DNA of 64,000 bases, taken from NCBI GenBank assembly GCA_964383745.1, contig CAYLHV010000005.1, positions 21,033 through 85,032 of the forward strand, written 5' to 3'. This stretch comes from an uncultured Rickettsiales bacterium (GTDB taxonomy: Bacteria > Pseudomonadota > Alphaproteobacteria > Rickettsiales > CAYLHV01). Made by a program: the position numbers and the translations under genes. Shown here piece after piece: positions 46,869 through 49,581 of the stretch (its first letter is position 1; the number at the start of each line of letters is the position of its first letter). The notes under the pieces are model-generated. The model was not told where the DNA came from. It ran no database searches and saw nothing but the letters and a program-made list of their open reading frames with translations.

Positions 46869-47627
46869 ATGTTAAAAAATATTAAAAAACTGAGAAGCCA
46901 AAAAGGTTTCACGCTTGTGGAGATCTCAATTGTGCTTGTCATCATTGGACTGATTGTCAGCGGTGTTCTTGTTGGTCAGGAATTAGTGAAAAACGCAGAA
47001 ATTCGCTCTCTAATTACACAAATTGAAGGGTATAATACTGCTTCATATACGTTTAAAGATAAATATCGCACATTACCTGGGGATTTTGCTAATGCTGTGA
47101 ATATGCTTGGTGCGGCGGCGAATGGTGATGGAAATGGGCTTGTACATGATGCTGCGGGAACGCCAGCAGCTGCAGCAACCACAATCGTAGGAGAAATTGT
47201 TGGATTTTGGCAACATTTGAACCTCGCGGGCCTTGCAGAAACTGCATATTCTGGACTTTCAGCAGGCGGAACGGCTTTAAACGGAGGAGGACAGAATTTC
47301 CCAACCATGAAAGGAAATAACTCTGCAGGCATTTTAGTATATTCCACTCCGGAGCGAGTTAATTATTACCATATTGGTATTATTGGAGACACTACTACAA
47401 CTATCACTACAGGAGGCGCAATGAGACCTGATGGTGCATATAATTTAGACCAAAAAATCGATGATGGAAGAGCAGATGCTGGAAATGTGCGGGCCATGGG
47501 TGGCATTGAAACCGCTCCTTCAGATGGAGCAACTGGAAGCCCTGGTTGTGTGATTACTACCGCTCTTGACGCATATAATGCTGCTAACACTACTGGAACA
47601 GATTGCCAACTTCGTGTCAGAATGTGA
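46869..47627 (+). CDS. Type IV pilin-like protein (prepilin leader, Gly/Ala/Thr-rich globular part, C-terminal Cys pair)
   Basis: From the ATG at 46869 (GAGGA SD): MLKNIKKLRSQKG/FTLVEISIVLVIIG. This is a class III signal with G-1, F+1 and E+5. C-terminal ..SPGCVITTALDAYNAANTTGTDC.. forms a disulfide-loop-like region. The track ORF starts earlier (46806). Confidence 0.85.
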   Translation: MLKNIKKLRSQKGFTLVEISIVLVIIGLIVSGVLVGQELVKNAEIRSLITQIEGYNTASYTFKDKYRTLPGDFANAVNMLGAAANGDGNGLVHDAAGTPAAAATTIVGEIVGFWQHLNLAGLAETAYSGLSAGGTALNGGGQNFPTMKGNNSAGILVYSTPERVNYYHIGIIGDTTTTITTGGAMRPDGAYNLDQKIDDGRADAGNVRAMGGIETAPSDGATGSPGCVITTALDAYNAANTTGTDCQLRVRM

Positions 47628-47900
47628 TTTTTAATTCACATTTTCCAAAAACCCTCAAGCAAAATCTTGTTTGGGGGTTTTCTTTATATTTCATATATTT
47701 ACGCCTTTATAATAATTTTTCTTTAGAATCCAGAGTTTTACTAATTCATTGTATTATATAGAAAATATAAAATATTTATTATTTATTCATTATATGGGTT
47801 GTATATCTAGTTGACTTGATATATAATATCTCATATTTCTAATAATCTAGTTTTAGATTATTAATATTCAATTAACTAATGTTTGGGGTGCGTGATCATG
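47592..47900 (+). repeat. Duplicated module copy 1: pilin 3' end plus conserved non-coding block upstream of ankyrin gene 1
   Basis: Aligns by eye with 48641-48911 at high identity, for example ttctttagaatccagagttt.ctaattcattgtattatata and tctcatattt..a.t.atctagtttta.attatta.attcaattaacta. Confidence 0.8.
47647..47690 (+). terminator. Possible intrinsic terminator after the pilin gene
   Basis: Imperfect hairpin aaaaccctcaag-caaaat-cttgtttgggggtttt followed by a T-rich run. This ~40-bp segment is missing from the duplicated copy at 48689. Confidence 0.3.
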
Positions 47901-48542
47901 AGAAATTATCTATTATATATTAACGTTGATGCAACTACTGGTGTTGTTGAACGAGGAAGCATTGCAGAAAGGCTTGTAATGAGCAGAAAAAGAAGATTAG
48001 ATCTCTTGTCTGAGCTAACTCCAGAAGAAATTCAGGCGGAAAAAGCGGCAAGAGGGGCTCTACTGGATAATCTAGTGAAATTATATATGCATGAAGGAAT
48101 TGATGCAGTTGCCAGATTCATACCAGATGCAAGAATTCGTTGTGAAGTGGTTGACTTATTTATTCAAAAAATGTTGCACTATGATGTGGATGTGAATGCT
48201 GCAAATTTTAAAGGACACACATTTTTGATGCTTGCAGGAGCATTTGGCTCAAATCACTCTGTCATCTCTCTTTTGCAAAAAGGAGCTAATGTGAATATTT
48301 GTTGTCATCATCAAGAAATGACTCCTTTGATGTATGCAGCTAAATATGGCAAAACTAACAACGTTAAAAAATTGCTATTTGCAGGTTCCTATGTGGAACA
48401 ACGTGTTAGGGAAAATTCAGGTCCATTATCAGGAGCAAAGGCGAGTGACATTGCAAAATGGTTTAAACGTGAGGAAGCTCGTTCTGTAATCACAGATTTG
48501 GAGGAAGCATTAGCAGAATCAAGAGGATCAAGATATATTTGA
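47898..48542 (+). CDS. Ankyrin-repeat protein, paralogue 1
   Basis: 214 aa from the ATG at 47898. ANK units GHTFLMLAGAFGSNHSVISLLQKGANVN and MTPLMYAAKYGKTNNVKKLLFAG. Shares RVRENSGPLSGAKASD with the gene at 48909. Confidence 0.8.
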   Translation: MRNYLLYINVDATTGVVERGSIAERLVMSRKRRLDLLSELTPEEIQAEKAARGALLDNLVKLYMHEGIDAVARFIPDARIRCEVVDLFIQKMLHYDVDVNAANFKGHTFLMLAGAFGSNHSVISLLQKGANVNICCHHQEMTPLMYAAKYGKTNNVKKLLFAGSYVEQRVRENSGPLSGAKASDIAKWFKREEARSVITDLEEALAESRGSRYI

Positions 48543-48571
48543 TGTGAAATTATTTTGGTTCTTTGGATTGA

Positions 48572-48676
48572 GATGACGGAGGTTCTCCCCTAGGGCGGTG
48601 CATTTTCTGTTCTGAGAGGGAATTTCCTGCGTCTGACACTTCTGGAACAGATTGCCCATTTCGTATCATAATGTGA
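48572..48676 (+). pseudogene. Promoterless 3' fragment of a second pilin gene (last ~34 codons)
   Basis: Reads DDGGSPLGRCIFCSEREFPASDTSGTDCPFRIIM*, against the pilin C-terminus DGATGSPGCVITTALDAYNAANTTGTDCQLRVRM*. Same stop context (aatgtgatttttaatt). No N-terminal part and no start codon. Confidence 0.65.
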
Positions 48677-48911
48677 TTTTTAATTAACGTTTTCTTTATA
48701 TTTCATATATTTAAGCCTTTATGCTCATTTTTCTTTAGAATCCAGAGTTTCGCTAATTCATTGTATTATATAAGAATTATAAAATATTTATTATTCCCTC
48801 ATTATATGAGTTGTAAAGCCACCAAGTTTGATATATAGTATCTCATATTTTTAATTATCTAGTTTTAAATTATTACATTCAATTAACTATTTTCCGAGGT
48901 TCGTGATTATG
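48641..48911 (+). repeat. Duplicated module copy 2: pilin-fragment 3' end plus conserved non-coding block upstream of ankyrin gene 2
   Basis: See copy 1 (47592-47900). It lacks the ~40-bp hairpin segment present in copy 1. Confidence 0.8.
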
Positions 48912-49532
48912 AAAGAGCATATATTCTATATTGAAGTTAAAGCAAATCAAGGTATTGTTGCACGAGGAAGTGAAGCACTAAGAAAAAGGAAATTGGATGA
49001 GCTATCCAAGATAGCCACAGAAGAGCTTCGGGCAGAAAAAATGGCACTATTCGATAAATTAGTAGAACTATATATGCGGGAAGGAATTGATCCAATTACC
49101 GAATTGATAGATGATGCAAAAATTCGTCAGAAATGGGTCGATTTGTTTATAAAGACAGTACTATCTCGTGACATAAATGTGAATATTCGAAACTGTAAAG
49201 GGCAAACATTATTGATGTTTGCGGCAGCACATGGATCAATTAAATCTGTGAAATCTCTTTTGCAGAAAAATGCTGATGTGGATCTTTGCTGTAATCATGA
49301 TGAAATGACTCCTTTAATATATGCAGCTAAATATGGCAAAATTGATAATATTAAAGAATTGATACTTGCGGGTGCTAACATAATACATCGAGTTAGAGAA
49401 AATTCCGGCCCACTATCAGGAGCGAAGGCAAGTGATGTGGCAAGATGTTTCGGTCATTTTTCTTCCTGCCAGCTCATTACAGACGTGGAAAAAATATTAT
49501 TAAAAGACGAAAATAAATGTATGACATTATAA
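48909..49532 (+). CDS. Ankyrin-repeat protein, paralogue 2
   Basis: 207 aa from the ATG at 48909. GQTLLMFAAAHGSIKSVKSLLQKNADVD and MTPLIYAAKYGKIDNIKELILAGANI. Collinear with paralogue 1. Confidence 0.8.
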   Translation: MKEHIFYIEVKANQGIVARGSEALRKRKLDELSKIATEELRAEKMALFDKLVELYMREGIDPITELIDDAKIRQKWVDLFIKTVLSRDINVNIRNCKGQTLLMFAAAHGSIKSVKSLLQKNADVDLCCNHDEMTPLIYAAKYGKIDNIKELILAGANIIHRVRENSGPLSGAKASDVARCFGHFSSCQLITDVEKILLKDENKCMTL

Positions 49533-49534
49533 AA

Positions 49535-49581
49535 AATTCTCCCGGTGGCTCTTTAATGATCCCCACGGGAGAATTTTTTTT
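49535..49581. terminator. Bidirectional intrinsic terminator between convergent ankyrin and peroxiredoxin genes
   Basis: Stem aattctcccg (49535-49544) pairs with cgggagaatt (49566-49575). An A-run lies on the left and a T-run (to 49581) on the right. Confidence 0.55.

Follow-up and report, generated by a model that had tools for sequence, protein, structure and literature searches.

We examined a window of 64,000 nucleotides (nt) with a G+C content of ~36%, taken from contig CAYLHV010000005.1 (positions 21,033 to 85,032, forward strand; GenBank assembly GCA_964383745.1) of an uncultured Rickettsiales bacterium; all coordinates below refer to this whole window. Its subject here is a prepilin gene and a short pilin 3′ fragment, called the stub, that lies downstream of it between two ankyrin-repeat genes, ank1 and ank2. 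The genes run in the order TPR, PilT/PilU-family ATPase, prepilin, ank1 and ank2, and are then met by the convergent ahpC and S1-domain genes (Table 1). About 1.05 kb of this DNA, running from the pilin 3′ tail across a non-coding block and an ankyrin gene, is present twice, head to tail.

Table 1. Features of the pilin-ankyrin locus, segments of the repeat, neighboring genes, and tandem pilin genes of relatives (the last in coordinates of their own contigs).
Feature	Coordinates	Strand	Evidence or remark
Prepilin gene, 252 aa	46869-47627	+	N_methyl / TIGR02532 motif; last ~15 codons (47584-47627) certainly duplicated
Intrinsic terminator hairpin of pilin gene, copy 1 only	47648-47681	+	Terminator scan; 37-column alignment gap
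Conserved non-coding block 1, upstream of ank1	47684-47897	+	84-86% identical to block 2
ank1, ankyrin-repeat protein gene, 214 aa	47898-48542	+	Pfam Ank_2/Ank; only close homologue is ank2
Spacer and blurred duplication junction	48543-48571		Ends with TGA in the stub frame; no significant similarity to ank2 3′ flank or pilin gene
Stub, untranslatable pilin 3′ relic, 34 codons and TGA	48572-48676	+	Certainly pilin from ~48628, weakly similar before
Stub 3′ flank (terminator hairpin missing) and non-coding block 2	48677-48908 (block copy 48695-48908)	+	Alignment, promoter scan
ank2, paralogous ankyrin-repeat protein gene, 207 aa	48909-49532	+	Pfam Ank families; 54% identical to ank1
Hairpin and T run closing the ank pair, facing ahpC 3′ end	49526-49584	+	Inverted repeat I5, 19-nt arms, 89% complementary, 21 nt between
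Repeat segment 1	47579-47645 / 48628-48694	direct	85%
Repeat segment 2	47677-47863 / 48689-48875	direct	86%
Repeat segment 3	47866-47959 / 48877-48970	direct	76%
Repeat segment 4	48045-48163 / 49032-49150	direct	71%
Repeat segment 5	48190-48463 / 49177-49450	direct	77%
TPR-repeat protein gene, first in TPR-PilT-pilin cluster	44841-45707	+	Pfam TPR families
PilT/PilU-family type IVa pilus ATPase gene	45709-46770	+	NCBIfam TIGR01420 434.8 bits, cut-off 319; Pfam T2SSE
AhpC-TSA gene (ahpC), convergent to ank pair	49585-50187	-	Pfam
Tandem pilin pair in relative L002	3609-4352 and 4529-5320		
Tandem pilin pair in relative L003	7206-7973 and 8001-8759		

The two copies were found as five collinear families of direct repeats, spaced 987-1049 nt apart and spanning 47579-48463 and 48628-49450. 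By blastn the unit matches its copy at 73.9% identity over 792 nt (E 6e-141), and the pilin tail with its flank does so at 87.5% over 56 nt (E 6e-14). The initial annotation had read the ~1-kb unit after the pilin gene as repeated once and had proposed a precise alignment of the copies; that alignment was run, and collinear head-to-tail copies are confirmed. The duplication is not an assembly artefact, because two contigs of an independent Logan assembly (SRR15237806) match the window exactly, covering 44804-47906 and 47878-52366 at 100% identity, with the pilin gene on one Logan contig only and ank2 on one only. The order ank1-fragment-ank2 is thus no artefact of one assembler.

The Logan assembly breaks at 47878-47906, where the end of one contig (L001) and the start of the other (L008) overlap by 29 nt. 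The copies share no exact run of at least 31 nt, as read from the alignment, so the break should not stem from the repeat; a strain variant, such as a deletion of ank1, or low coverage are possible causes.

The stub had been described as a promoterless and startless pilin 3′ fragment, and this holds: an in-frame TGA (48569-48571) stands directly upstream, no ATG, GTG or TTG occurs before its last codon, and no open reading frame (ORF) is listed for it. Its loop-and-tail sequence ends ...CIFCSEREFPASDTSGTDCPFRIIM, and the sequence specific to the stub is GGTTCTCCCCTAGGGCGGTGCATTTTCTG. Joining of ank1 to the stub by read-through or frameshift was considered and ruled out, the ank1 frame meeting a TAG 16 codons past its TGA and the stub lying in a different frame.

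Collinearity with the whole C-terminal Cys loop of the pilin, which had also been claimed, stood for the last ~15 codons, while the loop as a whole proved insecure. Secure homology starts at ~47579-47584 in the gene and 48628-48633 in the stub. In the 61 nt upstream of it, 24/61 positions are identical without gaps, and a global DNA alignment of this part beats ~95-97% of shuffles; at the protein level, 20 aligned residues (DGATGSP-G-C... against DD-GGSPLGRC...) score above 99.4% of shuffles (p ~0.006), the boundaries and frame having been picked after viewing the sequence. Local DNA alignments of 48543-48632 with the pilin gene or with the ank2 3′ flank were no better than shuffles, which also leaves unsupported the notion of 48543-48632 as an eroded ank2 terminator region. 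To judge from these alignments, the loop part of the stub is probably pilin-derived.

The alternative is that the left breakpoint of the duplication lay at ~47579, so that no more than the last ~15 codons were copied. The 60-90 nt from the ank1 stop to 48628 would then be filler of unrelated origin or an eroded 3′ flank of ank, and the GSP..G.C similarity a product of chance; the stub would still be a scar, shorter than first described. The failure of the local alignments, the low ungapped identity and the choice of protein frame and boundaries after viewing all favor this, yet the global protein alignment keeps the Cys and the GSP collinear with the pilin, Y236/N237 align without a gap to F/P of the stub, and a simple tandem duplication leaves no junction filler. 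We consider the shorter scar possible, though clearly the less probable of the two.

The intact gene encodes a prepilin leader and N-methylation motif of the G/FTLxE type (PF07963, 29.1 bits, cut-off 21.2; TIGR02532, 28.7 bits, cut-off 16.3). A homologue search of a protein collection of 5.8 billion clusters, standing for ~15 billion sequences, gave 3820 matches; one is labelled as a Rickettsiales metagenome-assembled genome, and the nearest other member is 49% identical. An AlphaFold2 model built with 70 homologues (predicted local distance difference test, pLDDT, 89.6) has a helix at residues 16-66, taken as the hydrophobic alpha-1 helix of type IV pilins, and a beta-sheet head with strands at 150-159, 165-171, 207-210, 232-236 and 246-251, the last. 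The head is thus predicted to be a globular beta-sheet with a C-terminal Cys pair (D-region) and a putative disulfide. In the 70-sequence alignment C246 is invariant, and C227 (at least 90%) and Y236 are nearly so; the loop varies among members of the family. Among PDB folds the model matches C. difficile PilA1 best, though weakly (E 0.024), and a PDB search with the pilin sequence gave matches through the N-terminal helix only. Among 118 homologues the residues following the last Cys are Q (61/118), L (102/118) and R (88/118), and a YN pair precedes it in most.

Set against this family, the stub has decayed. Where the live pilin reads YN...CQLRVRM the stub reads FP...CPFRIIM, and the tail differences comprise seven non-synonymous changes and one synonymous (7/8), several at family-conserved positions, indicating relaxed constraint of the stub relative to its parent gene. 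The family consensus C-Q-L-R fits the live pilin and not the stub, so the tail replacements appear to fall on the stub lineage. Scored with a profile built from the last 50 residues of the 118 homologues, the live 34-residue tail reaches 35.1 bits and the stub 2.6. The final residue that is common among family members is missing from both tails, which end M-TGA, and the stub therefore derives from this lineage's own pilin. As pilin sequence the stub thus looks decayed, though it has taken on no stop or frameshift yet.

Full-length pilin paralogues in direct tandem, with no gene between, occur in several relatives (L002, L003-L005), and because of these pairs pilin duplication is taken as recurrent in the group. 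They lend some color to the idea that the stub is what remains of a second full-length pilin paralogue whose 5′ ~650 nt were later deleted, whether the whole unit had been duplicated or an earlier tandem pilin pair had existed. We consider this improbable, since the pilin pairs of relatives are directly adjacent, an extra deletion step is needed, and no further 5′ pilin trace was found in 48543-48572.

The ankyrin genes are the intact part of the repeat. A homologue search of the same 5.8 billion clusters returned only ank1 and ank2 themselves besides generic ankyrin matches (30-33% over ~40% of the query). The closest syntenic relative (L006) has no ankyrin genes behind its pilin gene and has convergent UbiA/COX genes there instead; given this and the lack of homologues beyond generic ankyrin repeats, ank1 and ank2 appear to form an orphan, lineage-specific module. 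Block 1 carries a sigma-70-like promoter, TTGTAT-17-TATAAT, at 47799-47827 (read by eye) and a Shine-Dalgarno GGGG at 47884-47887; a scan found TTGTAA-17-TATAGT at 48811-48839 in block 2, and promoter-like hexamers and Shine-Dalgarno are kept ahead of both ankyrin genes. A 16-nt inverted repeat (47683-47698 / 47756-47771) is retained in both block copies. An Rfam search of 46500-50000 gave only a sub-threshold chance match to a miRNA, and the consensus RNA fold of the two blocks is weak (-15 kcal/mol over 215 columns), with no convincing structure.

Between stub and block 2, a 37-nt indel (47641-47682 against 48689-48694) removes exactly the pilin terminator hairpin. TTTTC flanks it on both sides in copy 1 (47641-47645 and 47678-47682) and occurs once in copy 2, which fits loss of the terminator by slippage between the two. 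ank1 is without a terminator of its own, the next hairpin and T run being those that close the pair. With the pilin hairpin lost from copy 2, ank1 transcripts probably continue across the stub into ank2.

Codon analysis of ank1 and ank2 gives dS (synonymous divergence) of 0.71, dN (non-synonymous divergence) of 0.36 and dN/dS of ~0.5, and four-fold degenerate sites are identical at 32/47 (68%). Because dS is ~0.7, the duplication that gave rise to these paralogues is old. Identity between the copies is a mosaic: ~40-50% in the loop part, 86% in the pilin tail with its stop, 84% in the block 47684-47897, and 68-74% in the ank coding sequence. The tail has 6 differences in 44 nt (14%), compared with roughly 8-12 expected, so its divergence is roughly half the neutral pairwise value, as would suit one unconstrained lineage. 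Only the stub lineage would drift, because selection would hold the live tail, in which the last strand, conserved across the family, is encoded. The loop would be near saturation, being variable across the family and unconstrained in the stub, and both blocks would be under constraint because each still has a promoter-like element and a Shine-Dalgarno before an intact ankyrin gene. Constraint on the tail in one of its two copies, and on the promoters of the blocks, would then explain the mosaic with no special mechanism needed; alternatively, tail and block may have been kept so similar by gene conversion between the copies.

The initial annotation had likened the stub to the silent cassettes of Neisseria, and had proposed looking in the genome for further pilin 3′ fragments. 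In form the likeness is plain: the stub is promoterless and 5′-truncated, has a conserved 3′ tail and flank in common with the pilin gene, differs from it most in the inter-cysteine loop, and keeps an open frame over its 34 codons, and the tail and block exceed neutral sites of the neighboring genes in identity, as recombination between the copies would have it. Nevertheless, when pilin, stub and unit served as tblastn and blastn queries against the 64-kb window, one fragment only and no second prepilin gene came up, and the tail core motif occurs twice in the window, in the gene and in the stub. The conserved tail core CTGGAACAGATTGCCNNNTTCGT had 4 and 6 matches in genome and metagenome contig collections, respectively, all of them chance matches without pilin similarity, so the source genome and its close relatives are absent from those collections. 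No G-quadruplex (G4) motif (regular expression: four G3+ or C3+ runs, loops 1-7 nt) occurs in the whole window, and a scan of six other ORFs within ~12 kb gave no recombinase match. The pilin loci of six relatives (L002-L007) hold only full-length pilins and no extra C-terminal fragments. No pilin of 49-100% identity was found among the 5.8 billion clusters, the 90% cluster of this pilin having one member and the species being seen in one sample; a chimeric allele, at ~90% identity, would have shown in the full-length pilin search, and so none is on record.

The geometry of the repeat also speaks against exchange. Sequence common to the stub and the pilin gene lies 3′ of the loop only (from 47579 / 48628 onward), and recombination would not swap the loop because of this one-sided homology: crossing over within the tail or block that the copies share would remove ank1 and leave the loop of the pilin as it is, and a conversion tract covering the loop would have no upstream anchor. 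The replacements of YN by FP and of CQLRVR by CPFRII, together with the profile score, make the stub unfit for a functional pilin. In view of the single fragment in 64 kb, the one-sided homology, the missing G4, the misfit to the profile and the lack of chimeric alleles and of fragments in relatives, it is highly improbable that the stub is a silent donor storing an alternative C-terminal loop for copying into the pilin gene as pilS is copied into pilE, and equally improbable is a minimal one-cassette device, in which the stub would occasionally replace the pilin loop by conversion, with the common 3′ sequence as its anchor and microhomology resolving it upstream.

The other reading offered by the initial annotation, a decaying duplication scar, is the one we favor: very probably the stub is a drifting, untranslated scar of an old ankyrin-gene tandem duplication whose left breakpoint clipped the pilin gene. 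A segment of ~1.05 kb was duplicated head to tail long ago, reaching from inside the pilin 3′ end, through the pilin 3′ flank and the ank promoter region, to just past the ank stop codon. Its left breakpoint lay within the pilin gene, and copy 2 therefore opens with a pilin 3′ stub. Untranslated and a mere by-product, the stub would have drifted, taking replacements at conserved positions (YN to FP, CQL to CPF) and diverging almost beyond recognition in its loop part, while selection held the last strand, CQLRVRM, of the live pilin. The blocks would have stayed alike because each still supplies an ankyrin gene with its promoter and 5′ leader, and slippage at TTTTC would have dropped the pilin terminator hairpin from copy 2, letting ank1 transcription enter ank2. 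The stub would play no part in pilin variation.

Several observations weigh against this account. The junction is eroded, and the left breakpoint can be placed only somewhere from ~47520 to 47580. The stub frame is open over 34 codons; from stop-codon frequencies at this G+C, the chance of this for the extra 20 codons is estimated at ~0.2-0.3. The tail and block (84-87%) are more alike than the ankyrin four-fold sites (68%), and recent recombination could give such identity, in which case the copies do or did interact. The fragment search covered the 64-kb window of the genome, and with the species seen in one sample the absence of chimeric alleles is weak evidence.

As a drifting scar the stub is an ordinary, textbook by-product of tandem duplication, and it shows that the truncated remnant of a gene for a surface protein can pass for a silent cassette. 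If it were true that the stub donates to the pilin gene, cassette-based pilin variation would reach past Neisseria into an uncultured lineage of alphaproteobacteria. Biologically, the product of the duplication that counts is probably the lineage-specific orphan ankyrin pair, each member with its well-conserved upstream block; ank1 and ank2 may be host-interaction proteins.

The surroundings tie the prepilin gene to type IV pilus machinery: a PilT/PilU-family ATPase gene lies directly upstream, and the order TPR-T2SSE(PilT)-pilin is repeated in L006 (5896-8759), whose pilin is 45% identical. The S1-domain gene at the other end of the locus has Pfam S1 matches and is taken to be rpsA. Three sizeable ORFs near the locus (38775-41270, 37718-38749 and 52486-53529, all on the minus strand; 831, 343 and 347 aa) were without an NCBIfam match at E ≤0.001. 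At 54220-54294, ~6.6 kb downstream of the pilin gene, is a gene for tRNA-Thr(GGT); the pilA of Pseudomonas adjoins a tRNA-Thr. A literature search for pilin 3′ remnants beside Pseudomonas pilA accessory genes found nothing usable.

Among known systems, the pilin inversion of Moraxella bovis and M. lacunata exchanges tfpQ and tfpI, which stand in inverted orientation, by means of the Piv recombinase. There, as here, an alternative promoterless 3′ pilin segment adjoins the expressed pilin gene. Unlike that inverted, site-specifically recombined arrangement, the copies described here are direct repeats, no inverted partner was found for them, and the six scanned ORFs were without a recombinase.

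In Neisseria each cassette covers the greater part of the variable gene and has conserved stretches scattered through it. The stub resembles the pilE-pilS system of N. gonorrhoeae and class I N. meningitidis in being an incomplete pilin copy that lacks a promoter and the 5′ coding region, in having its conserved 3′ coding end and 3′ flank in common with the expressed gene, and in differing in the Cys-bounded C-terminal region. Neisseria has several cassettes, two closed class I meningococcal genomes holding eight pilS cassettes in one locus with pilE (PMC4023411), whereas here there is one 34-codon stub with homology on one side, no G4 motif in the window and a poor fit to the pilin family. 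Variation at pilE/pilS requires a G4-forming sequence and is enhanced by the Sma/Cla repeat (PMC4023411; PMC3547852). In class II pilE N. meningitidis pilS cassettes are present and are not donors, no expressed pilin carrying their D-region sequence, so the presence of silent copies proves nothing in itself (PMC4023411). The stub is like these in being a silent partial pilin copy that very probably does not serve as a donor, and unlike them in origin, theirs being leftovers of a once-working multi-cassette locus distant from pilE and the stub a by-product of local tandem duplication.

The closest counterpart is the ordinary tandem segmental duplication with a truncated-gene relic. It too has collinear head-to-tail copies with a junction inside a gene; the truncated copy, without start or promoter, gathers replacements at conserved sites, while the intact gene, here ank, diverges into paralogues. 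We see no essential difference between such a relic and the present locus; it is the truncated gene being a pilin that invites the comparison with cassettes.

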